Below are positions 1 through 63,000 of a DNA stretch of 64,000 bases, in pieces. Made by a program: the position numbers and the translations under genes. Position 1 is the stretch's first letter. Every line of letters starts with the position of its first letter. The DNA comes from Mobula hypostoma. Lineage: Eukaryota. The notes beneath the pieces were generated by a model, which was not told where the DNA came from, ran no database searches, and worked only from the letters and a program-made list of their open reading frames with translations. The stretch lies in assembly GCF_963921235.1 (NCBI RefSeq), contig NC_086108.1, forward strand, positions 18,662,001 through 18,726,000, given 5' to 3'.

Positions 1-868
1 GCTGGAGCTTAGACTGGGGTCAGAGCCGAGTTTGCAGAAACCAGGGGGAGGGAACATGGGTGTGTTCAGCAGCTGCAGCTGGGATCTGGAATCAATCTAA
101 ACTTCAGTTCATTTTGACAAGCGGAGACTTACATAGAACTTGTTCTGTCCAACGAAGAGTTGACCACCGTGTGGCGTTACAACCACAGTGTCATTGCCAG
201 CATACATAGTAGAATCTGCATTTTCTTGTTAACCAAGGAACTCTTTGCCTTCACAAATAATGAGCGAGAACTTGGTGCAAATAGTTAGCTTCAAGTTGGT
301 GGTGTGACAGAGACGGTCTGCCACAAGAATTTCTTCCCCTCCCCCCGAAATAATAATATTTTCATTATCCCTGTCTAGCAGAGCTGACATTGGGTGCATG
401 TACGAAGCTAACATGCAGCATGAACTTACAGACTTGCACACTGCAGGGCAGTAAGGTTCTTTGACACGACCTGAGTGATGGGTGGGAGTCTTTAAAAAGG
501 TGCCCAATTGTGGTGGTCAGTGCTGGCTCAGTGGAAGAGTTGATTTTCAGGGATGAGCCAAAGTGCTGGCTCCTGGAAAATGGTTAGTTATTGAATGATT
601 TTGGTTGTGAAATATCATTGTGAGCTTATCATAATGCATGTACTTGTGGACATTTATGATTGTGAAGAAGGATGTGAATTTCTGTGTTTTGGTCTTTGTG
701 TATTTGTTCAGACTCATGATAACTCCCCCTACCGCATTCCAAAGAATGGGCCATCCCTTATCTCCTTAAGGAGGCGATCCTGAAAGGCTCGTTTTGGTGT
801 GAGAGAAGGAGAGAGGGTGTGGTAGGGTGGTCTGTATTACTTCACTCGAGACCTAAAGGTTGGATAGT

Positions 869-8679: not shown

Positions 8680-9205
8680 AGCCTCCCCTGGATCCCCCAC
8701 TATATCTCTGAAAGCAGAGGCCAGAGGTTAATCATTAGCCCATATTTCATTTCACAGAGACCTCTAAATAATGAGCATGCTTCAAGTCAATTGGTCTCCA
8801 CACAGGCTGCATTGTCCATTTGATTAGGGATGTTGAAGCAGAGACTCCTAGCAAGGAGAGTCTGATGATTGGGCAAAATTGCAGTCAACAAGATAAGTTG
8901 CAATGTAAAAGGTGGACAAAATCAAAAAGGGTGAATGCACAACTGAAGGTATTATATTTGAAAGCATGTAGTATATGGAATAAGGATGATGAACGTAGCA
9001 CAGTTACAAATTGGCATGTATGATGTTGTAGGCATCATTGAATCATGGCTGAAAGACTATAGCTGGGAGCTTAATGTCTAAGGGTACACATTGTATCAAA
9101 AGGCTGAGCAGTAAGGCAGAGAGTGTGGCATTGCTCTGTTGGTAGAAAATGAAAAAGTCATTAGAAAGAGGCGACATGGGGTCAGAAGGCATTGAACCAT
9201 TGTGG

Positions 9206-9273
9206 CCTGACGAAGGGTCTCGCCCCGAAACGTCAACTGTACCTGTTCCTAGAGATGCTGCCTGGCCTGCTGC
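9206..9273 (+). mobile_element. Short Penelope-like tail fragment carrying a hammerhead core
   Basis: CCTGACGAAGGGTCTCGCCCCGAAACGTCAACTG...GATGCTGCCTGGCCTGCTGC matches 49739-49806. Confidence 0.8.
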
Positions 9274-15551: not shown

Positions 15552-16005
15552 CACTCAGTGGCCACTTTATTAGGCATCTCCTGTATATAATAAAGTGGCC
15601 ACTAAGTGTAATGTTCATGGTCTTCTACTGCTGTAGCTCATCTGCTTCAAGACTCGATGTGTTGTGTGTTCAGATGTTCTCCTGCACATCACTGTTGTAA
15701 CACATGGTTATTTGAGTCACTGTCGACTTCCCGTCAGCTTGAACCAGTCTGGCCATTCTCCTTTGACCTCTCTCATTCACAAGGCACCTTCACCCTCAGA
15801 AATGCTGTTCACAGGATGGTTTTTGTTTTTTTACACCATAAACTCTAGAGCAGGGGTTCCCAACCTGGGGTCTGTGGACCCCTTGCTTAATGGTATTGGT
15901 CCGTGGCATAAAAAGGGTTGGGAACCCCTGCTCCAGAGTCTGTTTTGTGTAAAAATCCCAGCAGATCAACAATTTCTGAGATACTCAAAACACTCCGTCT
16001 GGCAC
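15552..16005. mobile_element. Tc1/mariner-like non-autonomous remnant
   Basis: CACTCAGTGGCCACTTTATTA (15552-15572) with its inverted copy TAATAAAGTGGCCACTAAGTG (15588-15608); assignment to fish Tc1-type termini is from recall. Confidence 0.55.
15851..15930. mobile_element. 80-bp hAT-type MITE
   Basis: TIRs CAGGGGTTCCCAACC / GGTTGGGAACCCCTG; 8-bp TSD CTCTAGAG / CTCCAGAG. Confidence 0.88.
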
Positions 16006-28429: not shown

Positions 28430-28790
28430 GCTCATCACAACACACAAAATGCTGGAGGAACTCAACAGTTCAGGTAGCATCAGTGGAGGGAAATGGACAG
28501 TTGATGTTTTGGTTCAAAACCCTTCTGGAAAAATAGAGGAGAGATAGCTAGTACAAATAGGTGAGAAGGAGTGGAGCAAGAACTGGCAAGTTCTAGGTGG
28601 ATCCAGGTGAGAGGGATGGGGAAGGGAGAATGGGAATAGTGATAGAGGCTGGTTGAGAGTTAGATGTGACAAAGGACGATGGTGGAGTCTGATATGAGAG
28701 GAAGGTGGAGCATGAAATCAAGTGAGGTGGTGGGGAGGACAGATAGGGACAGTGGGGGGAGGGGACCTAGTGTGCTTGCTGAGGGGCTTG
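28430..28790 (-). mobile_element. Penelope-like tail remnant
   Basis: CACACAAAATGCTGGAGGAACTCAACAG followed by a purine-rich tract, as at 37825-38150. Confidence 0.6.
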
Positions 28791-29039: not shown

Positions 29040-30365
29040 ATGACCTTTATCCCCCATCTCACCATCTGCTCTAATACTGATTCCTCTCCCCCTGAAAATC
29101 TAGTTTAAACCCCCCTGAGCAGAACTAGCAAACCTACCCACAAGGATATTAGTCACCCTCCAGTTCAGGTGCAAATCGTCCTGTCGGAACAGGTCCCACC
29201 TTCCCTGGAACAAAACCCAATTGTCTTGAAACATGAAGCCCTCCCTCCTGCACCATCTCCTTAACCACGTATTTAACTGCATTATCTTCCTATTTCTAGC
29301 CTCACTAGCACATGGCATGGGTAGCAATCCTGAGATTACAACCCTGGAGGTCCTGTCCTTCAACTTTGCACCTAACTCCCTAAACTCTCTTTGCAGGACC
29401 TCCTCCTCCTTCCTAGACACGTCATTGGTCCCTACATGGACCACGTAATCTGGCTGCTCATCCTCCCTCCTGAGAATACCAAGAACTTGATCCAAGCTAT
29501 CACAGACCCTGGCACCAGGGAGGCAACAGACTATCTGGGATTCTCGTCTCTCCCACAGAACCTCTTATCTGTCCCCCTATCACTACTGCTCTCCTTGTTT
29601 CCTTCCTTCCCTTCTGAGCTGAGGGTCCAGTCTCAGTGCCAGAGACAGACCACTACAACTTGTCCCTGGTAAGTCATCCCCACCAACAGTATCCAAAATG
29701 GTATACTTATTATTGATGGGAATGGCCACAGGGATGCTCTGTTCATTCTGTCTCTTCCCCTTCCCTCTCCTGGCAGTCACTCAGCCATCTGCCTCCTGAC
29801 TCTTAGGGGTGACTATCTCCCTGAAACTCCTGTCTGTTTCTGCCTCTGCCTCCCAAATGATCCGAAGTTCATCCAGCTCCAGCTCCCTAACTCGGTTTGT
29901 CAGAAGCTGCAGCTGGATGCACCTTTTACAGGTGTAGTCATCAGGGACAATTGTGCTGCCTCTGACTTCCCACATACTGCAAACAGACCACTCGACTGCT
30001 CTAACTGCTGCCTCCATTACCTACCCCTGTTAATTAAATTAATTAAAGGAACTTACCCGGCCTTACCTCACTGGGAGCAGGCTCATCCTCAACCTCTGAA
30101 GTCTCTTGAGCCAAAGCTTCAATGCTCCACTCCTCCTGAGCCTATCACACACTGGCTGTTCCTCTTCAATTACCTCTCCTTTTATTTGTCCTTGCCAATT
30201 ATCTCAAGTACTCACTCCCTCTAATCAACTAATCAATACTGTTTAACCCTTCAGTTGCCCTCCATGCTCCTTTTTAAAGCACACTCACCTGAGCTGCTAC
30301 ACAGCACTCAGCGCTCTCCCGAGCCTCTTGCTCCTCCTCCTGCTGTGACTGTTCCTCAATCACAC
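29040..30365 (-). mobile_element. CR1 5' portion (5'UTR, ORF1 pseudogene, first bases of ORF2)
   Basis: MEAAVRAVEWSVCSMW...CKRCIQLQLL; VHVGTND; DDLHLNW...GGLN*. Confidence 0.92.
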
Positions 30366-30497
30366 TGTCTGGATCTAGAAGATTATAAGGCTAGCAGGAA
30401 GGAGCTTAAGAAAGAAATTAGGAGAGCCAGAAGGGGCCATGAGAAGGCCTTGGTGGACAGGATTAAGGAAAACCCCAAGGCATTCTACAGGCATTCT

Positions 30498-33388
30498 GTG
30501 AGTGGTGGTAAAAATCTTCTGAGGTGTATATATTTCAATGCTAGGAGTATTGCGGGGAAGGCGGATGAGTTGAGGGCGTGGATTGACACGTGGAATTATG
30601 ACGTTGTAGCAATTAGTGAAACTTGGCTACAGGAGGGGCAGGACTGGCAGCTTAATATTCCAGGGTTCCGATGTTTCAGGTGTGATCGAGGCAGAGGAAT
30701 GAAAGGTGGGGGAGCAGCATTGCTTGTTAGGGAAAATATTACAGCAGTGCTCAGGCAGGACAGATTAGAGGGCTTGTCTACTGAGTCCTTATGGGTGGAG
30801 CTGAGAAACAGGAAAAGTATGGCCACATTAGTGGGGTTGTATTATAGACCACCCAATAGTCAACGAGACTTGGAAGAGCAGATCTGCAGAGAGATAGCAG
30901 ACAACTGTAGGAAACATAAAGTTGTGGTGGTAGGGGATTTTAATTTTCCATACATTGATTGGGACTCCCATACTGTTAGGGGTCTAGATGGTTTAGAGTT
31001 TGTAAAATGTGTTCAGGAAAGTTTTCTAAATCAGTATATAGAGGGACCAACTAGAGGGGAGGCAATATTGGATCTCCTGTTAGGAAACAAATTAGGGCAA
31101 GTGACGGAAGTCTGTGTAGGGGAGCACTTTGGTTCCAGTGATCATAACACCATTAGTTTCAATTTGATCATGGACAAGGATAGATCTGGTCCTAGGGTTG
31201 AGGTTCTGAACTGGAAGAAGGCCACATTTGAAGAAATGAGAAAGGATCCAAAAAGCATGGATTGGGACAGGTTGTTCTCTGGCAAAGATGTGATTGGTAG
31301 GTGGGAAGCCTTCAAAGGGGAAATTTTGAGAGTGCAGAGTTTGTATGTTCCTGTCAGGATTAAAGGCAACTTGAATAGGAATAAGGAACCTTGGTTCTCA
31401 AGGGATATTGCAACTCTGATAAAGAAGAAGAGGGAGTTGTATGAAATGTATAAGAAACAGGGGGTAAATCAGGTGCTTGAGGAGTATAAGAAGTGCAAGA
31501 AATCAGGAGGGCAAAAAGAAGACATGAGGTTGCCTTGGCAGTCAAAGTGAAGGATAATCCAAAGAGCTTTTACAAGTATATTAAGAGCAAAACGATTGTA
31601 AGGAATAAAATTGGTCCTCTTGAAGATCAGAGTGGTCGGCTTTGTGTGGAACCAAAGGAAATGGGGGAGATCTTAAATAGGTTTTTTGCGTCTGTATTTA
31701 CTAAGGAAGCTGGCATGAAATCTATGGAATTGAGGGAATCAAGTAGTGAGACCATGGCAACTGTACAGATTGAAAAGGAGGAGGTGCTTGCTGTCTTGAG
31801 GAAAATTAAAGTGGATAAATCCCCGGGACCTGACAGGGTGTTCCCTCGGACCTTGAAGGAGACTAGTGTTGAAATTGCAGGGGCCCTGGCAGAAATACTT
31901 AAAATGTCACTGTCTACGGGTGAAGTGCCGGAGGATTGGAGAGTGGCTCATGTTGTTCTGTTGTTTAAAAAAGGATTGAAAAGTAATCCGGGAAATTATA
32001 GGTCGGTGAGTTTAACGTCAGTAGTAGGTAAGTTATTGGAGGGAGTACTAAGAGACAGAATCTACAAGCATTTGGATAGACAGGGGCTTATTAGGGAGAG
32101 TCAACATGGCTTTGTGCCTGGTAGGTCACGTTTGACCAATCTGTTGGAATTTTTTGAGGAGGTTACCAGGAAAGTGGATGAAAGGAAGGCAGTGGATATT
32201 GTCTACATGGACTTCAGTAAGGCCTTTGACAAGGTCCCGCATGGGAGGTTAGTTAGGAAAATTCAGTCGCTAGGTACACATGGAGAGGTGGTAAATTGGA
32301 TTAGACATTGGCTCGATGGAAGAAGCCAGAGAGTGGTGGTAGAAAATTGCTTCTCTGAGTGGAGGCCTGTGACTAATAGTGTGCCACAGGGATCAGTACT
32401 AGGTCCATTGTTATTTGTCATCTATATCAATGACCTGGATGATAATGTGGTAAATTGGATCAGCAAGTTTGCTGATGATACAAAGATTGGAGGTGTAGTA
32501 GACAGTGAGGAAGGTTTTCAGAGCCTGCAAAGGGACTTGGACCAGCTGGAAAAATGGGCTGAAAAATGGTAGATGGAGATTAATACTGACAAGTGTGAGG
32601 TATTGCACATTGGAAAGACAAACCAACGTAGAACATACAGGGTTAATGGTAAGGCACTGAGGAGTGCAGTGGAACAGAGGGATCTGGGAATACAGATACA
32701 AAATTCCCTATAAGTGTCGTCACAGGTAGATAGGGTTGTAAAGAGAGTTTTTGGTACATTGCCCTTTATTAATCAAAGTATTGAGTATAAGAGCTGGAAT
32801 GTTATAATAAGGTTGTATAAGGCATTGGTGAGGCCGAATCTGGAGTATTGTGTTCAGTTTTGGTCACCAAATTACAGGAAGGATATAAATAAGGTTGAAA
32901 GAGTGCAGAGAAGGTTTACAAGGATGTTGCCGGGACTTGAGAAACTCAGTTACAGAGAAAGGTTGAATAGGTTAGGACTTTATTCCCTGGAGCGTAGAAG
33001 AATGAGGGGAGATTTGATAGAGGTATATAAAATTATGATGGGTATAGATAGAGTGAATGCAAGCAGGCTTTTTCCACTGAGACAAGGGGAGAAAAAAACC
33101 AGAGGACATGGGTTAAGGGTGAGGGGGGAAAAGTTTAAAGGGAATATTAGGGGGGGCTTCTTCACACAGAGAGTGGTGGGAGTATGGAATGAGCTACCAG
33201 ACGAGGTGGTAAATGCGGGTTCTTTTTTAACATTTAAGAATAAATTGGACAGATACATGGATGGGAGGTGTATGAAGGGATATGGTCCGTGTGCAGGTCA
33301 GTGGGACTAGGAGAAAATGGTTCAGCACAGCCAAGAAGGGCAAAGGGCCTGTTTCTGTGCTGTAGTTTCTATGGTTCTATGGTTCTAA
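30498..33388 (+). mobile_element. CR1 family A, 5'-truncated at the ORF2 start; near-complete EN+RT with a frameshift (~31500) and stops (32570, ~32710)
   Basis: ORFs 30255-31550 (EN part), 31493-32572 and 32714-33310; (TTCTATGG)n tail; inverted sister of 22198-25090. Confidence 0.96.
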
Positions 33389-35137
33389 GTATGTGAAGAG
33401 CAAAAGGATAGAGAATAGGACCAATCAAGTGTGACAGTGGAAAAGTGTGTATGGAACTGGAGGAGATAGCAGAGGTACTCTATGAGTACTTTGCTTCAGT
33501 ATTCACTATGGAAAAAGGTCTTGGCAATGATAGAGATGACTTACAGCGGACTGAAAAGCTTAAGAATGTAGATATTAAGGAAGAGGATGTGCTGGAGCTT
33601 TTGGAAAGCATCAAGTTGGATAAGTCACCGGGACCAGAAGGAATGTACCCCAGACTACTGTGGGAGGTGAGGGAGGAGATTGCTGAGCCTCTGCCAATGA
33701 TCTTTGCATCATCAATGAGGATGGGAGAGGTTCCGGAGGATTGGAGAGTTGTGGATGTTATTCCCTTATTCAAGAAAGGGAGTAGAGATAGCCCTGGAAA
33801 ATTCAGTGGTTGGTAAGTTGATGGAGAAGATCCTGAGAGGCAGGATTTATGAACATTTGGAGAGACATAATATGATTAGGAATAGTCAATATGGTGTTAT
33901 CAAAGGCAGGTCGTTCCTTACGAGCCTGATTGAATTTTTTGAGGATGTGACTAAACACATTGATGAAGGTAGAGCCATAGATGTAGTGTATATAGATTTC
34001 AGTAAGACATTTGATAAGGTACCCCATGCAAGGCTTATTGAGAAAGGAAGGAGGCATGGGATCCAAGGGGACATTGCTTTGTGGATCCAGAACTGGCTTG
34101 CCCACAGAAGGCAAAGGGTGGCTGTAAACAGGTCATATTCTGCATGCAGGTTGGTCACCAGTGGTGGGCCTCAGGGATCTGTTCTGGGACCCCTATTCTT
34201 CGTGATTTTTATAAATAACCTGGATGAAGAAGTGGAGGGATGTGTTTGTAAATTTGCTGATGACACAAAGGTTGGAGGTGTTGTGGATAGTGTGGAGGGC
34301 TGTCAGAAATTACAACGGGACATTGATAAGATGCAAAACTGGGCTGAGAAGTGGCAGATGGAGTTCAACCCAGATAAGTGTGAGGTGGTTCATTTTGGTA
34401 GGTCAAATATGATGGCAGAATATAGCATTAATGGTAAGACTCTTGGCAGTGTGGAGGATCAAAGGGATTTTGGGGTCCAAGTCCATAGGACACTCAAAGT
34501 TGCTGTGCAGGTTGACTCTGTGGTTAAGAAGGCATATGGTGCATTGGTCTTCCTCATTCGTGGGATTGGGTTTAAGACCCGAGAGGTAATGTTGCAGCTA
34601 TATAGGACCCTCGTCAGACCCCACTTGGAGTATTGTGCTCATTTCTGGTCGTCCCACTACAGGAAGGACATGGAAACCATAGAAAGGGTACAAAGGAGAT
34701 TTACAAGGATTGGGGAACGTGCCTTATGAGAATAGGTTGAGTGAACTCAGCCTTTTCTCCTTGGAGCAACAAAGCATAAGAGATGACCTGATAGAGGTGT
34801 ACAAGATGATGAGAGGCATTGATCGTGTGGATGGCCAGAAGCTTTTTCCCAGGGCTGAAATGGCTAGCACAAGAGGACACAGTTTTAAGGTGCTTAGTAG
34901 TAGGTACAGACGAGCTGTCAGGAGTAAGTTTTTTTCCACAGAGAATCGTGAGTGCATGGAATGGGCTGCCGGCGACAGTGGTGGAGGCGGAAACCATTAG
35001 GTCTTTTAAGAGACTCCTGGATAGGTACATGGAGTTTAGAAAGATAGGGGACTATGGGTAAGCCTAGATAATTTCTAAAGTGAGGTCAAGTAGTTTTAAA
35101 AACTTCTTTGAGTGAAAGAAGGACGAGACTGCACAGG

Positions 35138-35175
35138 CACGTGACGTCAACAGGACAGCATGGAGAGTTTAAAAA
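35138..35175 (+). promoter_or_regulatory. Candidate CR1 internal promoter: overlapping E-box and CRE, then a TATA-like tract
   Basis: CACGTG (35138-35143) overlaps TGACGTCA (35142-35149); TTTAAAAA at 35168-35175. Confidence 0.5.
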
Positions 35176-35468
35176 GAAGACCACCCTATACAGCGGGCAG
35201 CTGTCGGAGTGGGCAGCGGGGTGAGTGGGAGCAGAGTGTAGGGCTTTGGCTTCAACGGGCTTCGGCGGTAAACGGGAAGAGGCGAGAGCAAGGCACCAAC
35301 TCTTTTTTTTCTCCCCCCCCACCTTTCGCGAATCGGCCTGGACAGACAGGAACAGCAGGGCTCTCACAGCTAATGGTTCGAGCTAACGGTTTAAAAAGTT
35401 CGTCTGTTTGGCGAGGTAAGTGGGTGAGTAGACATTTTTCCTGTTTCATTCCTGTAGAATTAGATAGC

Positions 35469-36404
35469 ATGCCTGCAGGGTTCGTGCTTTGTTCAGGGTG
35501 TCAGATGTGGGAATCCTGGGAGACCTCCAGCCTCCCTGATGGCCACATCTGCGCCAGATGCACTGAGATGCAGCTCCTCAGAGACCGTGTTAGGGATCTG
35601 GAGCTGCAGCTTGATGACCTACTGCTTATCAGGGAAGGTGAAGAGGTGATAGACAGGAGCTACAGGGAGGTAGTCATCCCTAGGCTACAGGGGTCAGAAA
35701 ACTGGGTCACTGTCAAGAGAGGGAAGGGAAATGCCCGGATAGTGGAGAACACACCTGTGACTGTCCCCCTCAGCAACAGATATCTTGTTCTGGATGCTGT
35801 TGAGGGGGATGACCTGATGGGGGACGCCCACGGTGACCGGGTCTCTGGCAATGAGCCTGGCGCTGTTCTGCAGGAGACAAGGAGGGAGAAGAGGAATGCA
35901 GTAGTCGTAGGGGATTCCATAGTCAGGGGAACGGACAGGAGATTCTGTGAGCCTGATAGAGATACCCACATGGTGTGTTGCCTCCCAGGTGCCAGGGTAC
36001 GGGATGTCTTGGATCGGGTCCTGAATATTCTGAAGGAGAAGGGTGAGCAGCCAGTTGTCTTGGTACATGTTGGTACCAATGACACAGATAGGACAAAGGA
36101 GGGGGTCCTGAAGAGAGATTTCCAGGAGTTAGAAAGGAAGCTGAGAAGCACGACCTCCAAGGTAGTAATCTCGGGATTGCTACCTGTGCCACGTGCTAGC
36201 GAGGGCAAGAATAGTAGGATCAGGCAGATGAACGCGTGGCTGAGAGACTGGTGCAGGGGGCAGGGCTTCAGATTCTTGGATAATTGGAATCTCTTCTGGG
36301 GGAAGTATGACCTGTTCAAAAAGGACAGGATACACCTGAACCTGAAGGGGACCAATATCCTGGCGGGAAAGTTTAATAGAGCTGTTAGGGAGGGTTTAAA
36401 CTAA
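35469..36404 (+). CDS. Intact CR1 ORF1 protein (311 aa): CxxC/CxxC zinc finger, leucine zipper, SGNH/GDSL esterase-like domain
   Basis: MPAGFVLCSGCQMW...HICARCTEMQLLRDRVRDLELQLDDL...VVGDSIVRG...VHVGTND...DRIHLN; start chosen by homology to the other ORF1 copies. Confidence 0.85.
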   Translation: MPAGFVLCSGCQMWESWETSSLPDGHICARCTEMQLLRDRVRDLELQLDDLLLIREGEEVIDRSYREVVIPRLQGSENWVTVKRGKGNARIVENTPVTVPLSNRYLVLDAVEGDDLMGDAHGDRVSGNEPGAVLQETRREKRNAVVVGDSIVRGTDRRFCEPDRDTHMVCCLPGARVRDVLDRVLNILKEKGEQPVVLVHVGTNDTDRTKEGVLKRDFQELERKLRSTTSKVVISGLLPVPRASEGKNSRIRQMNAWLRDWCRGQGFRFLDNWNLFWGKYDLFKKDRIHLNLKGTNILAGKFNRAVREGLN

Positions 36405-37824
36405 TTTGGCAGGGGGATGGGAACCGGAATGACAGAGCAGAGGAAGGGGAAAACAAAAATAAATCTAAGATAGTGAGCAGTAAAGATGTCAGGAAAGACA
36501 GGCAGGTGATGGGGCAAATTTGTAGCTATTGGGATGAGTTGCAGTGCAATAAAGTTGCAGTGAAATCAAAGTGAAAAGTACCAAATACTGGTCTTAAGGT
36601 GTTATATTTAAACGCACGCAGCATAAGAAATAAGGTGGATGATTTTGTCGTACAGCTACAGATCAGCAGGTACGATATTGTGGCCATCACTGAGACGTGG
36701 CTAAATGATGCATGTCTCTGGGAGCTGAACGTCCAAGGATACACAGTGTATCGGAAGGATAGGAAGGTAGGCAGAGGGGGTGGCTTGGCTTTATTGGTAA
36801 AAAATGATATTAAATCATGAGAAAGAGGTGCTATAGGATCGGAAGGTGCAGAACGGGCAAAGAAGTGGCAAATGAAGTACAATGTTGGAAAATGTATGCT
36901 TATGCACTTTGGCAGAAGTAATAAACGGGCAAACTATCATTTAAATGGGGAAAGAATTCAAAGTTCTGAGATGCAACGGGACTTGGGAGTCCTTGTACAG
37001 GATACCCTTAAGGTTAACCTCCAGGTTGAGTCAGTAGTGAAGAAGGCGAATGCAATGTTGGCATTAATTTCTAGAGGAGTAGAGTATAGGAGCAGGGATG
37101 TGATGTTGAGGCTCTATAAGGCGCTGGTGAGACCTCACTTGGAGTACTGTGGGCAGTTTTGGTCTCCTTATTTAAGAAAGGATGTGCTGACGTTGGAGAG
37201 GGTACAGAGAAGATTCACTAGAATGATTCCGGGAATGAGAGGGTTAACATATGAGGAACGTTTGTCCGCTCTTGGACTGTATTCCTTGGAGTTTCAAAGA
37301 ATGAGGGAAGACCTTATAGAAACATCTTGAATGTTGAAAGGCATGGACAGAGTGGATGTGGCAAAGTTGTTTCCCATGATGGGGGAGTCTAGTACGAGAG
37401 GGCATGACTTAAGGATTGAAGGGCACCCATTCAGAACAGAAATGCGAAGAAATTTTTTTAGCCAGAGAGTGGTAAATCTATGGAATTTGTTGCCACGGGC
37501 AGCAGTGGAGGCCAAGTCATTGGGTGTATTTAAGGCAGAGATTGATAGGTATCTAAGTAGCCAGGGCATCAAAGGTTATGGTGAAAAGGCCGGGGAGTGG
37601 GACTGAATGGGAGAATGGATCAGCTCATGATAAAATGGCGGAGCAGACTCGATGGGCTGAATGGCTGACTTCTGCTCCTTTGTCTTATGGTCTTATGGTC
37701 ATGTCCGGCACAGCTTTGTGGGCTAAAGGGCTATGTTTTTTCTAAGACACCTACCATTAACTGAGGGGTTTGTGGACCCCAGGTTGGGTACCCCTGGGCT
37801 GGACAAACTGGATATGGGAACACA

Positions 37825-38150
37825 AAATAATCTGCAGATGTTGTTGTCAAAGGAACACTCACAATGCGCTGGAGGAACTCAGCAGGTCAGTCAGCATCAG
37901 TTGAAAAGATTAGTCGACGTTTCGGGCCAAAACCCTTCATCAGGACTGAAGGAAGAACTTTGGGGAGGGTTTGAAGAATGCTGTTAGTTGAAAAAAACAG
38001 TAATTTGAAAGACAAAGGGGTGGGGGAGGGGAAGCAGGGAGGTGATTGGCAGGAGAACAATGCGCAGTAGTAGAAGGAGGCGGAACTTTGAGGGAGGTGA
38101 TGTGAAATAGGGATAGAGGAAGGGGCGGGGGGGGGAGGGAATTACTGGAA
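37825..38150 (-). mobile_element. Penelope-like 3' tail
   Basis: Reverse complement of the pyrimidine tract + CAGTCCTGATGAAGGG...CTGCTGAGTTCCTCCAGC terminus. Confidence 0.75.
37911..37948 (-). ncRNA. Minimal type I hammerhead ribozyme motif (core intact, GUC site)
   Basis: CAGUC-CUGAUGA-A-GGGUUUUGGCCC-GAAA-CG-UC-GACUA. Confidence 0.75.
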
Positions 38151-38304: not shown

Positions 38305-39595
38305 ATAGAAACATAGAAACGTAGAAACATAGAAAATAGATGCAGGAGTAGGCCATTCGGCCCTTCGAGCCTGCGCCGCCATTCAGTATGATCATGGCTG
38401 ATCATCCAACTCAGAACCCTGTACCCGCCTTCCCTCCATACCCCCTGATCCCTTTAGCCACAAGGGCCATATCTAACTCCCTCTTAAATATAGCCAATGA
38501 ACTGGCCTCAACTGTTTCCTGTAGCAGAGAATTCCACAGATTCACCACTCTCTGTGTGAAGAAGTTTTTCCTCATCTCGGTCCTAAAAGGCTTCCCCTTT
38601 ATCCTCAAACTGTGACCCCTCGTTCTGGACTTCCCCAACATCGGGAACAATCTTCCTGCATCTAGCCTGTCTAATCCCTTTAGGATTTTATACGTTTCAA
38701 TCAGATCCCCCCTCCACCTTCTAAATTCCAACGAGTATAAGCCTAGTTCATCCAGTCTTTCATCATATGAAAGTCCTGCCATCCCAGGAATCAATCTGGT
38801 GAACCTTCTTTGTACTCCCTCTATGGCAAGGATGTCTTTCCTCAGATTAGGGGACCAAAACTGCACACAATACTCCAGGTGTGGTCTCACCAAGGCTTTG
38901 TACAACTGCAGTAGTACCTCCCTGCTCCTGTACTCGAATCCTCTTGCTATAAATGCCAGCATACCATTCGCCTTTTTCACCGCCTGCTGTACCTGCATGC
39001 CCACTTTCAATGACTGGTGTATAATGACACCCAGGTCTCATTGCACCTCCCCTTTTCCTAATCGGCCACCATTCAGATAATAATCCGTTTTCCTGTTTTT
39101 GCCACCAAAGTGGATAACTTCACATTTATCCACATTAAATTGCATCTGCCATGAATTTGCCCACTCACCCAACCTATCCAAGTCACCCTGCATCCTCTTA
39201 GCATCCTCCTCACAGCTAACACTGCCGCCCAGCTTCGTGTCATCCGCAAACTTGGAGATGCTGCATTTAATTCCCTCATCCAAGTCATTAATATATATTG
39301 TAAACAACTGGGGTCCCAGCACTGAACCACTAGTCACTGCCTGCCATTCTGAAAAGGTCCCGGTTATTCCCACTCTTTGCTTCCTGTCTGCCAACCAATT
39401 CTCTATCCACATCAATACCTTACCCCCAATACCGTGTGCTTTAAGTTTGCACACTAATCTCCTGTGTGGGACCTTGTCAAAAGCCTTTTGAAAATCCAAA
39501 TATACCACATCCACTGGTTCTCCCCTATCCACTCTACTAGTTACATCCTCAAAAAATTCTATGAGATTCGTCAGACATGATTTTCCTTTCACAAG
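38305..39595 (-). mobile_element. Relatively young 5'-truncated CR1 (RT and C-terminus, 3'UTR)
   Basis: KGKSCLTNL, DFQKAFDKVPH, KFADDTK, RPHLEYCVQFWSP; (ATAGAAAC)n tail on the plus strand; small deletion at GVPQ. Confidence 0.95.
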
Positions 39596-40099
39596 GAAAT
39601 GCTAATTTAAACTTGACATATGCCTGTGCACTGATCCTATCCCCTTATTCCCTGTTGGGTCATTTGCCTGTCCAAATGCTTCCTAATCATTGCTATTGAA
39701 TCTGCTATTAACACTTACCCTGGCAGCATGTTCCAGACACCTACCTCTCACTATGCAAAAAAGAACTGCCTTTTAAATCTTTAAACTTTCTCCCTCTCAC
39801 TTTAAGTGTATACTTTCCAGTGTTTGACATTTCCATCCTGGGAAATAGATAATCTACCCTATCTTTGCCTTTCATAATTTTATATACTTCAAACGCATTG
39901 CCCCCCAGCATGCAACACTCCAAAGAAAATAACACAAATTTGTCTGTTCATTATTTATGCTTGTTATTATAAATCATAGGGCAAGAGACTATGGCTTGAG
40001 TTGAGAAGACATTTAATTGCTTAGATGGTGGTGAACCCTTTGAATTTGCTACTGCCCCAGGACTATGGAAGCCAAGATACTGACTATATTTAAGAAGGA

Positions 40100-44769: not shown

Positions 44770-45445
44770 GAGGACCCAAACAGTCCTTCCAGGTGAGGCA
44801 ACACTTCACTTGTGAGTCTGTTGAGGTCATCTATTGCATCCAGTGCTCCCGGTGCAGCCTCCTCTACATCGATGAAACCCGACGCAGACTGGGGGACCGC
44901 TTCATCGAGCACCTCCGCAGACACAACAGACAGGATCTCCCAGTTGGCACCCACTTCAACTCTGCTTCACATTCCCATTCGGATATGTCCATACATGGCC
45001 TCCTCTACTGCCATGATGAGGCTCAACTCAGGTTGGAAGAGCCACACCTCATTTACCGTCTGGGTAGTCTCGAGCCCCTTGGTATGAACACTGAATTCTC
45101 CAACTTCCAGTACTTCCCTCCCCCTCCCTTCCCCTATCCCAGTTTCACTCTGCCCCCTCCCCCAGCTGCCTACTACCTCCCTTATGGTTCCGCCTCCTTC
45201 TACTACCCATTGTGCTTTCTCCTATTCCTTCTTCACCTTTCCTGCCTATCCCCTCCCCCACCCCTTTATCTTTCCCCTTACTGGTTTTTCACCTGGAACC
45301 TTCCAGCCTTCTCCTTCCCACCCTCCCCCCACCTTCTTTATAGGGCCTCTGCCCCTTCCCTCTTCAGTCCTGATGAAGGGTTCCGGCCCGAAACGTTGAC
45401 TGATCGATTCCACGGATGCTGCCCGACCTGCTGAGTTCCTCCAGT
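44770..45445 (+). mobile_element. Penelope-like element 3' part: GIY-YIG endonuclease and tail
   Basis: FTCES..VIYCIQCSRCSLLYIDET.RRL..RF.EH...HFN...E.HLIYRLGSL.P.GMN, the PLE-type GIY-YIG domain with CCHH. Confidence 0.9.
45364..45403 (+). ncRNA. Minimal type I hammerhead ribozyme motif (core intact, GUU site)
   Basis: UCAGUC-CUGAUGA-A-GGGUUCCGGCCC-GAAA-CG-UU-GACUGA; 6-bp stem I. Confidence 0.78.
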
Positions 45446-45887
45446 TTGGTTGTTAACCTGAAACGTTAGCCCTATTTCTCTGTCCACAGATGCTGCCTGA
45501 CCTGCAGGATATTCTCTGTTTTTACTTCAAGTTTCACTTTCAGTTACACATTAAGTCCTTCAGCTTTACTCACTTACTTTTATATCACTCTCAAGGGATC
45601 ATCAGCTTGTTTGTATCCACACCATCTCACTTCTGAGACTCTAACCCTGCACGATATCTCAGTCACACAGAAGCCACATTACCTTAAGTATCTCACCCTC
45701 TGTGATTAATTCAGCAACTGTTCACCTTTGGCATCATGTACTGGAACTTCTTCTCAGACTGGGAAGTGTGACTTTTGATTCCTAATGAGTTTGCTGCCAT
45801 TTGCAGTCTGAAAGGATTGAGGGTGAATGGAAAGAGGAAGGTTATTGAACAAAGGAAGGAAAAGAAGTGAGATGCAGTTATCATTGT

Positions 45888-46130
45888 AACACACACAAAA
45901 TGCTGAAGGAAATCAGCAAGCCAGGCAGCATCTATGGAAAAATATAAACAGTTGACATTTCGGGCCAAGCCTTTCATCAAGACTGGAAAAAAATATGCTA
46001 AGTCCTGATGAAGGGTCTCAACCCGAAATATCGACGGTTTACTCTTTTCCCTAGATGTTGCCTGACCTGCTGAGTTCCTCCAGCATGTTATGTGTGTTGC
46101 TTGGATTTCCAGCATCAGCAGATTTTCTCA
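45888..46130. mobile_element. Inverted pair of Penelope tails (fold-back element)
   Basis: 45890-45985 is the approximate reverse complement of 46001-46098, with a ~15-nt A-rich spacer. Confidence 0.8.
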
Positions 46131-46974
46131 TCTTTGTGCTACAGTTATCATTGGCTATGTATCCAACCGTTTCTGAGGGTAGTGTATCTAATTATATCTC
46201 TGAAAGGGTTTGAAAGGACAATGTATGGGATAGTTCATTATCTAACCATGTTCTGGAGGAATATGATGACATAATGTGAAGGAAGGCTTACTGTTTATTT
46301 AATCGCTGCTCTGGAAGGAATTCTAAACATGCTGAACAAGATTTCCTCCCTTTCTGCCTGTGCTATATACGTGCTCCTGGATTTCTTCCAGTCATGATTT
46401 CAATGTCTCTTCCCTTTATGAATGCACAGATCACAAAATCAAAGACTGAAAGATATACGAGAGGTGCTGACTGAAGAGAGTGATGATGTGCCATGGCGCT
46501 GGAGGCTGCTCAAGATACTGATTCTTTGGAAGAGATTTCAGCCACACATCTTCCTACTTTAGCTGAAAGGACAAGTGAGAACACTTCCATGGACCCATCC
46601 GTCACCACCTCCAGTTCTTCCATCTTCCAGAGCATTGACAGCCATACTTAGCCCAGTGCTAGGTGTCTTTGCAGAGGAGAGTAGCAAAGGTGTGCAGTGA
46701 AAGATGTGGCAAAAAAGGCAAGGCTGAACATTACTGGAGTACAGAGTGTTTATCCAACACCACACCCTTCAGACAGATGGTTTCACCACTGCAGGCAGAA
46801 TAGGATCAATAAAATCTGAAACCTCATTCCTATCAGGTGTCCTGTTATATTGGTTGGGTACTCAGCAATTAAACCAGTCCCAACTGTGCAGCCCATGTGT
46901 GTCTCTGTACGGAATACACAGGAGTGCATTGTTGAATATTTTATGTGTAATTGTTTGTAATCCCATTCAATAGA

Positions 46975-47462: not shown

Positions 47463-48319
47463 TATATATCCTTCCCCTCACACCCCTATCTTTTTTACTT
47501 TCACCAAACATCCTCCTGTCGAATGATATAACTCCACCTTTGGACAAGTTTTTCAGAAGCACATACAGGTATCCTTATCACAGGAGGGGCAGTGGACCAA
47601 GTGTGTGGCTCTGTTCCCAACTTTCCTTGTCTAAGAAAGGAAATGTTGGCAACATTCAGCAGGTCAGGCAGCATCTGTGCAGCAAAGCAGAGATGGCATT
47701 CCAGGTCAGTAGCCTTCTTTTGGAACAAGTAATTCTGAACATAATTTTGATTGGCTGGTATATGAAGTGGTTGAATTCAGAAGACTTATTTTGTCTCTTT
47801 TTTGGCCATCTGTGAAGGCCATCATTTTTTGCCCATCCTTAATTGCCCAAGATCTGAATGGCTTGCTAGGCCATTTTAAAATCAACCATATGATCTGGTC
47901 CTGGACTCACACATGGACCAGTCCAGGTAAACACAACAGCCTTCCTCCCATTTGTGAAGCAAATGGGTTTTTGCAGTCATCCTTTTTAAGCACTGTTTTT
48001 TCCCCACCCCCACTATATAAAGAATTAAATTCCACAGTTGCTGTGGTGAGATTTGAATTCAGTTTTCTGGATTCTGACTCCATTAATTTAACCACTGTGT
48101 CATCACTGCATTCTTATGTCCCTAAATGGAAGTTGAAATCAGGCATTTCTCAAAGTTAAACAAGTTTATTGTTAACTGTACAAGTGCATGTATGAAAAAC
48201 GTCCTTGCAGCAGTGTCACAGGCACATAGCATCAGATAACCAGCATTCAAAATTAAACATAAAATGCACACAATTTTTACAATAAAGAACACAAGCAGAA
48301 TGAAAAGAAATGCCCCAAG

Positions 48320-48580
48320 CATTTTTCCCCCTCCTCCAGCCCTTTATCTCTTTCACCATTCAACTTCCTGACTCCTTACTTCACCCCCTCCCCCTCTTCT
48401 GGTTTCACCTATCACCTGCTACCTTGTGCTTCTTCCTTCCCTCTACGCTACCTTCTTATTATGATTTCTCCCCTTCCTTTCCAGCCCTGATGAAGGGTCT
48501 CGGCCCAAAACGTCGACTGTTTACTCTTTTCCATAGATGCTGCCTGGCCTGCTGAGTTCCTCCAGCATTTTGTGTGTTGA
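48320..48580 (+). mobile_element. Penelope-like tail (hammerhead core with G12 changed to A)
   Basis: CAGCCCTGATGAAGGGTCTCGGCCCAAAACGTCGACTG at 48482-48519. Confidence 0.75.
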
Positions 48581-48756: not shown

Positions 48757-49873
48757 CGGATTTCCTCGTGTTTGCATTTTTAACATGCTCTCACTCCATC
48801 CTCCCGCCACCCCACTAGGAATAGGGTTCCCCTTGTCCTCACCTACCACCCCACCAGCCTTCAGGTCCAACATATAATCCTCCGTAACTTCCGCCACCTC
48901 CAACGGGATCCCACCACTAAGCACATCTTTCCCTCCCCCTCCTCTGCTTTCCGCAGGGATCGCTCCCTACGTGACTCCCTCGTCCATTCGTCTCCCTCAT
49001 CCCTCCCCACTGATCTCCCCCCGGCACTTATCCTTGTAAGCAGAACAAGTGCAATACATGCCCTTACACTTCCTCTCTTACCACCATTCAGGGCCCCAGA
49101 CAGTCCTTCCAGGTGAGGCAACACTTCACTTGTGAGTCAGCTGGGGTGATATACTGCGTCCGGTGCTCCCGATGTGGCCTTCTATATATTGGCGAGACCC
49201 GACGCAGACTGGGAGATCATTTCGCTGAACACCTACGCTCTGTCCGCCAGAGAAAGCAGGATCTCCCAGTGGCCACTCATTTTAATTCCACGTCCCATTC
49301 CCATTCTGATATGTCTATCCAAGGCCTCCTCTACTGTCAAGATGAAGCCACACTCAGGTTGGAGGAACACCTTATATTCCATCTGGGTAGCCTCCAACCT
49401 GATGGCATGAACATGACTTCTCTAACTTCTCCTAATGCCCCACCTCCCCCTCATACTCCATCCGTTATTTATTTATATACACACATTCTTTTTCTCTCTC
49501 TCCTTTTTCTCTCTCTGTCCTCCTCACTATACCCCTTGCCCATCCTCTGGGCTTTCCCCCCCCTCCCCCTTTTCTTTCTCCCTAGGCCTCCTGTCCCATG
49601 ATTCTCTTATATCCCTTTTGCCAATCAACTGTCCAGTTCTTGACTCCATCTGTCCCTCTCCTGTCTTCCCTTATCATTTTGGATCTCCCCCTCCCACTCC
49701 CACTTTCAAATCTCTTACTACCTCTTCTTTCAGTTAGTCCTGACAAAGGGTCTTAGACCGAAACGTCGACTGTACCTCTTTCTAGAGATGCTGCCTGGCC
49801 TGCTGCGTTCACCAGCAACTTTTATGTGTGTTGCTTGAAATTCCAGCATCTGCAGGTTTCCTCGTGTTTGTGT
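48757..49873 (+). mobile_element. Penelope-like insertion (linker, GIY-YIG, tail) with a 13-bp TSD
   Basis: RVPLVLTYHP, AFRRDRSLRDSLV, GVIYCVRCSRCGLLYIGETRRRL; TSD CCTTCAATCTTCT at 48744-48756 and 49874-49886. Confidence 0.93.
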
Positions 49874-51050: not shown

Positions 51051-52246
51051 TGAAGCTGGGGTCACCTATTGTGTCCAATTCTCCCGATGAGGCCTTCTCT
51101 ACACTGGTGAGTTCCAGCATAATTTGGGGAATGCTTTGTCGAGCACCTTTGCACCATTTAGTCATAGTCATAGTCATACTTTATTAACCCCGAGGGAAAC
51201 TGGGTTTCGTTACAGTTGCACCAACCAAGAATAGAGTTTAAATATAGCAATATAAAACCATCAATAATTAAATAATAATATGTAAATTATGCCAGATGGA
51301 AATAAGCCTATTGGCTCAGGGTGTCTGACCCTCCAAGGGAGGAGTTGTAAAGTTTGATGGCCACAGGCAAGAATGACTTCCTATGACGCTCAGTGTAGCA
51401 TATCGGTGGAATGAGTCTCTGGCTGAATATACTCCTGTGCCCAACCAGTACATTATGTAGTGGATGGGAGACATTGTCCAAGATGGCATGCAACTTAGAC
51501 AGCATCCTCTTTTCAGACACCACCGTCACAGAGTCCAGTTCCATCCCCACAACGTCACTGGCCTTACGAATGAGTTTGTTGATTCTGTTGATGTCCGCTA
51601 CCCTCAGCCTGCTGCCCCAGCACACAACAGCAAACATGATAGCATTGGCCACCACAGACTCGTAGAACATCCTCAGCATCGTCCAACAGATGTTAAAGGA
51701 CCTCAGTCTCCTCAGGAGATAGAGATAGCTCTGACCCTTCTTGTAGACAGCCTCAGTGTTCACCACAAGCAGGACTTCCCAGGGGCCAAACATTTTAATT
51801 CCGATTCCTATTCCCATTCTGATACATCGGTCTATGTGCCATGATGACGCCACCCTAAGGGTGGAGGAGCAACACTTCATATTCTATTAGGGTAGCCCCC
51901 AACCTGATGGCATGAAAATCAATTTCTCCTCCCTCCCCACTTTCTTTATTCTCTGCTGTGGCCTCTTGCCACTTCTCATCTGCCTATCACCTCCCCCTGG
52001 GTCCCCTCCTCCCTCCCTTTCTCCTATGGTCCACTCTCCTCTCCTTCAGATTCCTTTATCTCAAGCCCTTGACCTTTCCCACCCACCTGGCTTCACCTAT
52101 CACCTTCCAACTATCCTCCTTCCTCTCCACCCACCTTTTTATTCTTCCCCCCTTCTTCTCAGTCCTGAAGAAATGTCTTGGCCGGAAACATCATTTCCAC
52201 AGATGTTGTCTGACCTGCTGAGTTCCTTCAGCATTTTGTAAGTTCC
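51051..52246 (+). mobile_element. Penelope-like insertion with a 12-bp TSD, interrupted by a Rex1-like LINE
   Basis: TSD TTTAATTTCCCA at 51039-51050 and 52247-52258; GIY-YIG remnants on both sides of the nested insert. Confidence 0.85.
51158..51758 (-). mobile_element. Rex1/Babar-like LINE 3' end
   Basis: NTEAVYKKGQS.LY.LRRLRSFN...FYESVV...VVCWG...HPLH...RHRKSFLPVAIKLYN; AATAAA then a (TATGAC)n tail. Confidence 0.85.
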
Positions 52247-52569
52247 TTTAATTTCCCACACCTAGTTGTCTTTGAGAAAATGGTAGTGAGCTGCTTTCAT
52301 GAACCACTGCAGTCCTAGAGGTGTGGGCACACCCACAAAGCTGGGATATAATGTGGCCGTGAATTGGAAACTGCTAGATTGTGAGAACCATTTTCAAAGA
52401 GAGGATGCAAGGACTGATGTTCTCATGAAAAGAATAGCACCCAGTTCCAGTCCCCACAGAGGCCTAGGAGCAGCATATATAGCAAAAAGTCCAGGTTTTT
52501 GCAGAAGGTGAGGGCTCAAATCTTCAGAAAGCCTGGAGGGTAAGAGGAAGAGAGAGCTGAGGAGAGTCA

Positions 52570-59600: not shown

Positions 59601-60066
59601 TGTTGCAACAAATGAGGCGGACCCAAGTGCAGGACACAGGCACTGAGATTTAGTTAGGGTGCAAATGTGAATGGCAAACAAGAGGGAGAGCAAGAAGGCA
59701 GGAGGCAGGCAGAATTATCTTGACATGGAGTGTAGAAAGGGAAATGGCAGACAAAACGCTTCTTAACACGGAGAGACAGAGTTACGCAGGCAAACCTCGG
59801 TGCTGAAGTAAAACTTGAGAAGACTTATCTTGACACAGAGAGGCTGGGTTTCAAAGATAAGCCTCAGAACAGGAGTAGAACTTAGAAAACTGATCTTGAT
59901 ACGAAAAGATTGAGTTTCACAGGTAATTCTCAGTACTGGAGCAAAACTTAGAACACACAGTCCTAAGCAGCTGGGAAACGTTCATTACCACACAGGCAAA
60001 ACCAACGATCTGGCAACTAGTGGTTGTAAAGCTGGGGTTCTTATGCTGCAGGTCAGAACCTTGACA
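59601..60066 (-). repeat. 3' LTR (466 bp) with adjacent polypurine tract at ~60070-60085
   Basis: Minus strand GAGGGGGGGCGGTGGGTAT, then TGTCAAGG...TTGCAACA (TG...CA). Confidence 0.88.
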
Positions 60067-60084
60067 ATACCCACCGCCCCCCCT

Positions 60085-63000
60085 CAACGGGAGTCCCCAG
60101 GCGAACCACCAGGCTTGTTCGGATTGTCTTGATGGAAATCTCAGATGAGGGAAGGGTCCAGGATGAAGGAGCAGGGAATCCAGGAGCATTCCTCCAGGTC
60201 GTATCCCTCCCAATCGACCAGGTACTGGAGACAGACACAAAGGGCTGACAGACACAGGTTTCATTTGGGAGATATGGAACGTGGGATGAATGTGTATAGA
60301 TCTAGGCAGTTTGAGTCTGACTGCCGAGGGGTTGATTATGTTCTCAATTTTGAATGGTCCCAGGTAGCGAGGGGCGAGTTTCTTGGGTTCATTCTTGAGG
60401 GGGATGTCTTTTTACGAGAGCCAAACCTTCTGCCCAGGCCGATAATTTGGTGCAGGAATTTGATGGCAATCGGCAATCCTCCAGTTGCGGTCAGCTGAGT
60501 GGAGCAGGGCCGCGCGTGCAACCTTCCAGATCTTGCGGCACTGGTGGAGATGGGCCTGAACAGAAGGCACAGCAATGTCATCTTCATGTGTGGGAAACAG
60601 AGGGAGCATTCGAAGGGAGATATTCCGGTGACAGTGCTGACCAGGGAGTTATGGGTGTACTCAACCCAAACGAGATGGGTGCTCCAGGATGAGGGGTTGT
60701 TGGCGGTTATGCAGCACAGTGCTACTTCCAAATCCTGGTTTCCTCATTCAGTTTGACCATTAAGTCTGCGGATGGAAGCTGGAAGACAGGTTTACTGAGG
60801 CTCCAAGGGCTTGACAAAAGGATCTCCAGACTTGAGAGATGAATTGGGCACCCTGGTCAGAAATAATGTCAGAGGGAATACCATGAAGGCAGAAGATGTG
60901 ATGAACAAGGAGGTCGGCTCTCTCAAGGGCTGTGGGGAGTTTGGGAAGGGCTACGAAGTGCACAGATTTGGAGAAGTGGCCCACCACGGTGAGTACAGCA
61001 GTGTTCCCATGTGAAGTGGGTAGCCCAGTAACGAAATCCAGCGCAATTTGAAACCAGGGGCAACTAGGGACAGGTAAGGGATGAAGCAACCCAGCAGGTG
61101 TTCGGTGGGAGGCTTTTCCGCGGGCACAAACAGGACAGGCAGAGACGAAGGAACGGGTGTCAGTGTCCATGGAGTTCCACCAGAAATGTCTCTTCAAAAG
61201 GGACAGAGTTCGGTCACTTCCGGGATGGCAGGCGAAACGAGAAGTGTGCCCCCACTGGAGGACCTGAGACCAAACAGAGTCAGGCACGAAGAGGCGACTG
61301 GGGGCCCCTTGCCTGGGTCAGGTTGAGTCCACTGGGCCTCTTTGACTATGGATTTCGATCTCCCAGATGAGGGCGGCCACTACACAGGATTGTGGAAGGA
61401 TGGTCTCGGGATTGGGAAGGCCCTCCTCGGAGACGTATTGACGGGAGAGAGCATCAGGCTTCCCATTCTTGGACCCCAGATGATAGGTGAGTGTGAATCT
61501 GAAACGGCCAAAAAATAATGCCCAACGGGCTTGTCGAGAATTCAGGCATTTGGCGGTTTGGGTGTATGCGAGATTCTTGTGATCTATCCAGATGATGAAT
61601 GGATGTTCTGCTCCCTCCAGCCAGTGCCTCCATTCCTCCAAAGCAAGTTTGATGGCCAGTAACTCCCGCTTCCCTTCATCGTAGTTCTGTTTGGCGAGAA
61701 AAGAAGGCAAAGAGATGGAGTTTTTGGTCTGGGCCGGAGAGTTGGGAGAGGACTGCTCTCACCCCAGAGTCAGAAGTGTGGACTTCCACAATAAACTGAC
61801 GAGAGGGGTCAGGTTGGACCAGGATGGGAGCGGAGGTGAAACGCCTCTTCAGCTCCGAGAAGGCTGAGTCCGCTTCGGGGTCCCAGTGAAAAGGGGTCAG
61901 TGAAAAGATGAGTTGAGTAATGGGCGCTGCCACCCGGCTGTAATCCCTGATGAAGCGATAGTAGAAGTTTGCAAACCCCAGAAGAAACTGGAGTTGCTTG
62001 AGTGTCATGGGTTTTGGCCACTCCACCTCTTTTTGGGATCCGCCCTCACTTGCCTGCTCTCGATGATGTACCCTAAGAAACTGACAGAAGGGACATGAAA
62101 CTCGCACTTCTCAGCCTTCACGAATAGTTTGTTCTCCCAAAATCTCTGCAGAACCTGACGGACATGGTGGGTGTGTTCCTGAAGACTGCGGGAGAAGATT
62201 AAGATGTCATCCAAATAAACAAAAATGAAACGGTTAATAAAGTCCCTAAGGACATCATTTATCAGGGCTTGGAAAACGGTGGGGGCATTGGTGAGATCTA
62301 ATGGCATGACCAGATATTCAAAATGACCGAGGAGGGTGTTAAAAGCTGTTTTCCACTCATTTCCCTCTCTTATCCTGACCAGGTGGTAGGCACTTCGTAG
62401 GTCCAACTTAGAGAAGATGGCGGCTCCGTGAAGGGGTTCGAAAGCAGAGTTGATAAGGGGCAGCGGATAGTTATTTTTTATGGTTATGCTATTCAGGCCA
62501 CGGTAGTCAATGCAAGGATGCAGTGAGCCGTCTTTTTTCCCCACAAAGAAGAACCCTGAGCCTACAGGGGAAGATGAGGGTCAGATAATGCCAGCCGCGG
62601 GAGAGTCATTAAGGTAAGCCTCCATTGCTTCCCTTTCTGGCCGGGACAAGTTATACAGCCAACTGGAGGGTAGAGGGATTCCGGGGAGAAGGTCAATTGT
62701 GCAATCGTAAGGGCAGTGTGGAGGCAGGGAAAGAGCCCGTTGTTTGCTAAAAGCTTCTCCCAGATTGTGATACTCTGCTGGAACCTTGGATAAATCGGGG
62801 GTTTCAGCGGCAGATGAGGTCACGGTGACTTTCACAGGGGAAAGGGCCGATTGTAGACAAGTGGATTGCCAGAACAGACTCCAGCTGACTATCTTCCCGG
62901 TGGACCAGTCAATGTGGGGATTATGGCGGCTTAACCAGGGGTACCCAAGAACTATAGGAGCTTGAGGAGAGGAAATTAAGTTAAATTGTACCTGTTCCCA

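Follow-up and report, generated by a model that had tools for sequence, protein, structure and literature searches.

A Penelope-like retroelement that has reached huge copy numbers in the ray Mobula hypostoma carries a minimal type I hammerhead ribozyme motif in its terminal repeat (pLTR). In the reading that we consider the most probable, the motif likely cuts weakly or seldom, and its fold likely stops reverse transcription and turns the new strand back on itself. This kind of motif, with its extra A and palindromic helix III, is already published (PMC4209133), and its copies in the window (the whole 64-kb stretch of DNA analysed) are mostly decayed. What is added here is a fossil record of more than 100,000 recent inserts, which bears on what the hammerhead does in Penelope-like elements (its role is called unclear in PMC8557442). 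The record contains no use of cut RNA, tolerates lineages with weakened cores, and links both truncations and inversions with stem I. The long-noted inverted repeats of Penelope-like elements would be explained by the fold-back reading, if it is true.

Positions in the motif are numbered with +1 as the first base 3' of H17 (the predicted cut), so that C3 is at -28 and the outer (5') strand of stem I spans -29 to -33. We call a motif complete when it has the 11 core bases, H17, four pairs in stems I and II, and paired 15.2/16.2. The core CUGANGA...GAAA...UH and both stems are present, and pairing holds in 92.5% of stem cells across 68 copies; positions 15.1-16.1 form the palindrome ACGU, and the monomer has no helix III. 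An extra A between A9 and G10.1 was found in 74/81, 21/23 and 45/48 copies of three lineage groups. An extra A at the same position occurs in a viroid hammerhead. The initial annotation, which had described a minimal type I hammerhead in a Penelope-like element, with a palindromic ACGU helix III, an extra A after A9 and a very high copy number, was thus correct in its main outline. The extra A does not set these copies apart: a nucleotide between 9 and 10.1 is a standing feature of such motifs (PMC4209133).

All eight motifs that had been listed in the window were found where they had been placed, and two of the nine copies scored are complete under the test of core, H17 and stems. The motif at 45364-45403 (+) has a 6-bp stem I (45364-45369 with 45398-45403), C3 at 45370, the extra A, a 4-bp stem II, ACGU, and a predicted cut after 45397 at GUU. 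It lies inside a 5'-truncated Penelope-like copy of an older lineage (44772..45444, +), which consists, in order, of the GIY-YIG end of the ORF (44772-45108), a pyrimidine-rich 3' UTR, the hammerhead and a tail. The other, at 37911-37948 (-), has a 4-bp stem I and GUC with H17 at 37916, in a copy that extends to about -231.

The remaining copies show varied stages of decay. A solo hammerhead with a short tail (9206..9273, +) has its 5' end at -29; the intact core reported at 9207-9239 holds, with a T.C mismatch in stem II and a G>A change at +1 as further, unlisted faults. Two motifs had been classed as single-core mutants, and both core changes are present: G12A at 48482-48519, in an old-lineage 3' fragment (48337..48579, +), and G8A at 49735-49772, in a 1.1-kb 5'-truncated copy with a target duplication (48758..49873, +). 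The former also has a stem I mismatch and the latter a G.A mismatch in stem II, so neither is a clean single mutant as a whole ribozyme. The 1.1-kb copy includes a frame (49014-49418) encoding a CX4CXXC linker and a GIY-YIG domain; it opens with a short piece of its own tail end (48758-48785) in direct orientation followed by ORF sequence, likely a template jump. The decayed motifs at 45949-45986 and 46001-46036 are both present, the first on the minus strand and the second on the plus strand from -32; they belong to a single head-to-head insertion (45887..46139) with a 14-bp target duplication (45873-45886 / 46140-46153, one mismatch). An eroded motif near 52160-52195 lies in a decayed copy at 51767..52256 (+). 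Absent from the earlier listing were a decayed tail with a partial motif from -23 (28435..28527, -) and two tail-only pieces (47656-47679, -; 45483-45505, +). An Rfam scan of the window returned no hammerhead family at E<=5; because Rfam models require helix III, this is no evidence against hammerhead identity.

The carrier element encodes a reverse transcriptase (RT), a CX4CXXC linker and a GIY-YIG nuclease, and has the pLTR, the tail and the adjacent inverted copy. The GIY-YIG domain match (E = 1.5e-4, 22.4 bits) is slightly below the cut-off of 22.6. The closest annotated relatives of the element protein are in the rays Mobula hypostoma (92%) and Hypanus sabinus (87%). Residues 2-726 of an RT-bearing relative, P0009, are matched at 49-50% by 61 genome places, the number scored out of 137,294 candidates, and 58 of these 61 are stop-free. 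The full unit measures 3.51 kb from motif to motif and comprises the motif, a short tail, an ORF of ~1,016 codons that begins ~139 bases after the upstream predicted cut site (+139), a 3' UTR, and the motif again (L249, L250); at L249, L250 and L258, two motifs ~3.5 kb apart flank the RT-GIY-YIG ORF. From the order of motif, tail and ORF in full units, the "tail" is the element's own leader, repeated. One exact pattern for the repeat joined to the ORF start matched 423 genome places. The linker sequence points to a Neptune or Nematis type, since a CX2-5CxxC linker in a single ORF with RT and C-terminal GIY-YIG is described for these EN+ Penelope-like elements (PMC8557442, Craig et al. 2021).

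Some annotated ray proteins also match the element protein, namely P0004, P0005 and P0010, recorded as mucin-2, DIPK1C and chitinase domain protein 1 isoforms. P0005 and P0010 are nearly all RT or nuclease sequence. The records reflect copies that are read through or exonised, or else they are artefacts of annotation. In all lineages, a pyrimidine tract at ~+6..+21, often ending in TAG (e.g. window 48520-48538), lies directly 5' of a conserved ATG, from which the main lineage has a frame of 16 codons; the arrangement resembles an upstream ORF or a further splice acceptor.

Copy number was assessed across the 3.48-Gb genome. The strict-core pattern gave 23,303 matches and its reverse none, and an exact 21-base core pattern permitting U at 11.1 gave 65,913. 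A tail profile found 184 matches (149 at >=20 bits) in 126 evenly spaced 10-kb stretches from seven large contigs (1.26 Mb), and none in the reversed control. The zero matches in reversed controls indicate that the motif matches are not due to chance. Extrapolation from the tail-profile sample gives about 0.4-0.5 million relics genome-wide. Complete copies numbered 10/133 in the sample by the strict definition and 22/133 with G.U permitted at 10.1-11.1, which by extrapolation corresponds to about 28,000 and 61,000 genome-wide. Tandem arrays occur outside the window: at L247:1150-1560 (minus strand; C5 near 107.46 Mb), three 104-base units, each with a complete U11.1 motif, are joined to the ORF, and at C2:157816730-157817680 four junction matches are spaced 310 bases apart. 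Such retrozyme-like arrays would be a natural setting for a dimer.

Selection on the motif differs between source elements and their inserted copies. Across seven representatives of different lineages, mean identity is 0.87 in the motif, 0.58 in the 66 bases 5' of it and 0.43 in the 14 bases 3' of it, which argues that source elements kept the motif. Moreover, 10 of 11 core bases are fixed in every lineage despite flank divergence, as selection for cutting would give, and this counts against our preferred reading. Among inserted copies, conversely, the core changes at a rate like that of the 3' flank (4/467 vs 29/1,924 non-CpG changes, p = 0.38), so that inserted copies decay neutrally. The decay test used copies not chosen by their core and excluded G12 and nine columns with shared lineage variants. 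In 52 co-linear main-lineage copies, non-CpG changes numbered 4/467 in the core, 12/727 in the stems, 13/1,352 in the tail and 16/572 in the spacer. A core no more conserved than its flanks had been proposed, together with an absence of cleavage, as grounds for rejecting the ribozyme; such a core is what we found among inserted copies, and the opposite holds between lineages. Covariation was no guide, since the stems barely vary and the test has no power: a single cell changed on both sides in 68 copies, which is not above shuffles. We infer that selection acts only on source elements and that inserted copies are passengers.

Two lineages carry changes that could weaken the ribozyme. The youngest copies, whose median nearest-neighbour identity is 0.978 (n=59, vs 0.922, n=24), are marked by U at 11.1, giving G10.1-U11.1, and this U is also present in 51/51 motifs from loci where the ORF is open or joined to the repeat; the G10.1-C11.1 pair is found in both complete window copies and in older lineages. 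A literature search found no published measurement of the rate effect of G10.1-U11.1. An older lineage carries A6C. Exact matches with a base other than A at position 6 numbered 806, and among 100 of them listed, C occurred in 83, G in 11 and T in 6 (counted by eye); the sevenfold excess of the transversion over the transition indicates shared descent of the A6C copies. A6C is reported to strongly lower Mg-dependent cutting in two hammerheads other than the present one (PMC7151607, PMC3088659); at 0.3 mM Mg, the rate of a test hammerhead fell to 3.6e-6 per min, against 0.30 before the change (PMC7151607). Given that both lineages were amplified, catalysis looks relaxed. However, A6C copies might derive from rare sources copied by the protein of other elements, and A6C ribozymes retain cutting in Mn or at high Mg.

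The ends of inserts carry no trace of the predicted cut. Among 117 copies selected on -28..-8 only, no 3' end falls at -3..+3, while 48 fall at +55..72 and 46 at +95..112, two zones that resemble the two internal start sites reported for the anole element (PMC11167929). Thirty copies extend out of the ORF into the upstream repeat. Eight of them stop within the tail and 22 cross the predicted cut site; none of these 22 starts at that site (upper 95% bound 13%), and ten extend beyond -200. Genome-wide, foreign sequence interrupts the cut-site window (-5..+4) in 917/100,521 copies (0.9%) and a control window (-43..-54) in 1,428/61,912 (2.3%), a rough comparison in that the pyrimidine and purine filters differ and may pass unequal shares of copies. 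Within the cut-site window, +1 is the commonest apparent start, with 28 among 100 matches listed (by eye); these 28 comprise 10 stem I fold-backs, 7 other inversions, 5 internal deletions and 6 cases of unrelated flank. Complementarity accounts for most such starts, although a few may be true products of cutting. In the fold-backs, 10 among the 100 matches listed, an arm ending at -31/-32 is joined to +1 exactly via the stem I complement. Cut RNA that is destroyed or never copied leaves no fossil, so the missing +1 ends do not show an absence of cutting.

The 5' ends instead accumulate at the outer strand of stem I. In the outer-edge window (-28..-39), 4,063/65,913 copies (6.2%) have turned to foreign sequence by -39, 2.7 times the control share under the same filter. 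Fine end positions were tallied by eye on the first 100 matches listed of each set. In this one, they fall at -28 (7), -29 (9), -30 (7), -31 (24), -32 (21), -33 (3), -34 (5), -35 (6), -36 (8), -37 (8) and -38 (2), so that 45 among the 100 listed end at -31/-32; a second bump at -35..-37 (22 among the same 100) fits an initiator-like start site and not stem I. The sample taken without a filter has 86 copies at risk, of which 23 have their end at -28..-34, a rate of 0.038 per base vs 0.003-0.012 elsewhere. Exact target duplications of 9-16 bp were present at 10/30 loci, and four of them fix the end at -31 or -32 (L187, L189, L210, L216). An inverted partner lies alongside 44/128 sampled copies; the 128 are those mapped from the 149 copies of >=20 bits, the others being near a stretch end, partial profile matches or duplicates. 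Boundary mapping used 41/49 references, those with inverted arms being excluded, and ends assigned to +4..+22 in old copies result in part from indels.

The A6C lineage allows the position of this edge to be compared with stem length, since its stem I has a fifth Watson-Crick pair (C-G) where the other lineage compared has U.G. Its 5' ends, by eye in 96 rows among the matches listed (four rows of that other lineage having been excluded from the 100), fall at -28 (13), -29 (14), -30 (15), -31 (21), -32 (12), -33 (16) and beyond (5). By these tallies, ends at -33 make up 3/24 of those at -32/-33 in the U.G lineage vs 16/28 in the C-G lineage (p = 0.001). The presence of the pile-up in the A6C lineage, together with its shift, indicates that it needs no canonical core and follows the length of the Watson-Crick stem. 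In the literature searched, we found no published description of 5' ends clustering at a Penelope hammerhead; the supplements of PMC4209133 and 10.64898/2026.07.22.740005 may list cartilaginous-fish motifs.

We propose a mechanism in which the reverse transcriptase would start inside the RNA at the two tail zones (+55..72 and +95..112), by analogy with the anole element in vitro, and would copy through an uncut motif on tandem RNA. Copying would often stop once the new DNA end complements the stem I strand copied earlier. The stopped end could then join the target, giving solo inserts of 100-140 bp with target duplications, or could fold back on itself, giving head-to-head inserts. More tentatively, it is possible that the Penelope hammerhead has been largely repurposed, with the self-complementarity of stem I, not chemistry, setting the stop and fold-back. 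Lineages with A6C or a weakened 10.1-11.1 pair would then spread no less well, or even better, and the weakened pair would be behind the most recent burst. Were this repurposing true, stem I would be the source of both the head-to-head repeats and the tiny solo inserts that typify the class.

Predicted folding of the motif is in line with poor activity. The 45364 monomer is predicted to fold most stably as a rod, with its 5' core paired to the bases that precede the cut (-13.0 kcal/mol, with the open hammerhead at -12.4), and in the dimer the double hammerhead is predicted at -23.1 vs -31.1 kcal/mol for the best fold, in a nearest-neighbour model that ignores tertiary contacts and protein. A predicted rod-like monomer and a disfavoured double hammerhead fit the weak, helper-dependent cutting reported in PMC4209133 and PMC11167929. 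Metazoan motifs of the same kind are described as cutting weakly even as dimers (PMC4209133), and the anole (Poseidon) motif as cutting only with the element's protein (PMC11167929). In the latter study, catalytic mutants left insertion in vitro unaffected and RNA-seq ends at the cut site were reported absent.

These observations also bear on what else the motif may do. A working, protein-assisted dimer ribozyme could trim tandem precursor RNA, with products going to decay, translation or circles and seldom serving as insertion template; this is in part compatible with our preferred explanation, and we regard it as rather doubtful as a full account. The fixed core and stems amid flanks at 0.43-0.58 identity, the two motifs 3.51 kb apart in full units, the tandem array at L247 and the protein-dependent cutting of the anole element (PMC11167929) all favour such a ribozyme, but neither the 117 inserts nor the 22 read-through copies end or begin at the predicted cut site, the A6C and U11.1 lineages were amplified, and the predicted energies favour the alternative dimer fold and the monomer rod. 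Alternatively, the pile-up at -31/-32 could mark the start of the element RNA, through a start site or a splice acceptor just 5' of the motif, with short inserts as run-off copies. A pyrimidine tract followed by YAG does lie directly 5' of the motif in all lineages seen, a D. virilis intron ends at helix I (PMC4209133), and the D. virilis repeat contains an internal promoter (PMC2377424); the second bump at -36/-37 and the G that precedes 13/24 ends at -31 (by eye, among matches listed), as a copied cap could give, point the same way. We nevertheless think an RNA start unlikely, because only 3/21 ORF-joined upstream repeats end at -28..-39 (p = 0.0007 vs one half, and matching the general rate) and the edge shifts with stem I length. 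GT..AG joints, at 0/14 in four contig sets guessed to be RNA, argue weakly in the same direction, as such sets cannot show starts, ends, strand or level. A shared spliced exon 5' of -30 was ruled out, the flanks varying from copy to copy.

The initial annotation had raised the further idea that host transcripts are cut by intact copies when these pair in cis or trans. The extrapolated 28,000 to 61,000 complete copies, and the abundance of related repeat sequence in the contig sets guessed to be RNA, speak for such cutting at scale, which would matter more than the mechanism proposed above, but the idea is without support here and we judge it very improbable. In the window, one complete copy is on the plus strand and the other on the minus strand, same-strand complete pairs amount to 1 among 22 complete copies in the 126 10-kb stretches, and inserted cores are neither kept nor purged; moreover, a rod is the predicted monomer fold, an antisense partner adjoins a third of the copies, and published activity is low. 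Appreciable cutting of host RNA by inserted copies is thus unlikely.

Minimal hammerheads in metazoan Penelope-like pLTRs were described by Cervera and de la Pena in 2014 (PMC4209133), including those of fish Xena, Poseidon and Neptune elements. Ours share with these the type I form, a helix III consisting only of a palindrome, the extra base 9/10.1, the location in a terminal repeat, and the occurrence mostly as solo copies from truncated elements and as opposite-strand pairs. They differ in their higher number (23,303 by the strict pattern, and more with the wobble pair, vs 4,000-9,000 in coelacanth and Xenopus), in a short 4-bp stem II, in stems that barely vary and show covariation no higher than shuffles within the Mobula genome, in the A6C lineage, and in a youngest lineage without the G10.1-C11.1 pair that is called highly conserved there. 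Compared with PAc, the Anolis carolinensis Poseidon element (PMC11167929, Frangieh et al. 2024), the motif likewise lies at the boundary of repeat and ORF, two downstream RT start zones define a 30-40-base tail, and use of cut RNA is unseen. In PAc, however, the ORF starts inside the motif and not downstream of it; the CX4CXXC linker (Neptune or Nematis type) is a further difference, and, as far as the published account of PAc goes, a 5'-end pile-up at stem I is described only here.

With Neptune and Nematis elements (PMC8557442), the present element has in common the RT, CX2-5CxxC linker and C-terminal GIY-YIG as well as partial tandems, an inverted 5'-truncated neighbour and a tail. Non-LTR retrozymes (10.64898/2026.07.22.740005), reported in one cartilaginous fish, are similarly pLTR-derived with a type I motif. 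The window copies, in contrast, are dispersed monomers and inverted pairs: tandem units with complete motifs, a feature of these retrozymes, were found in none of them and are present elsewhere in the genome at L247. The fold-back junctions recall the snap-back 5' junctions of the R2 protein (PMC11331408), in which a new DNA end primes on a nearby strand to yield a reverse-complement arm. Such junctions are described as rare for R2, whereas an inverted partner accompanies about a third of the copies here, with the junctions clustering in one RNA motif.

Several other features were recorded in the window. Remnants of a non-LTR element with a GDSL-type ORF1, AP endonuclease and RT span 29673-37330 (+), with more RT pieces at 22997-23515 (-) and 39038-39601 (-) and ORF1 and endonuclease pieces at 3926-5107 (+). 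Pol fragments of an LTR retroelement (RT, integrase and a Tf2-like SH3) occupy 59917-62580 (-). A near-perfect palindrome at 15547-15614, with an Rfam mir-9256 match on both strands (45 of 80 bits, below the gathering score), is likely a small inverted-repeat element. A 46-codon frame after an acceptor-like AG at 46422-46562 (+) is perhaps a host exon; a search for relatives of this candidate (46422-46559) found none. Finally, a frame at 51308-51883 (-) matches ALKBH8_N, a family that is frequent at the ends of LINE ORFs.
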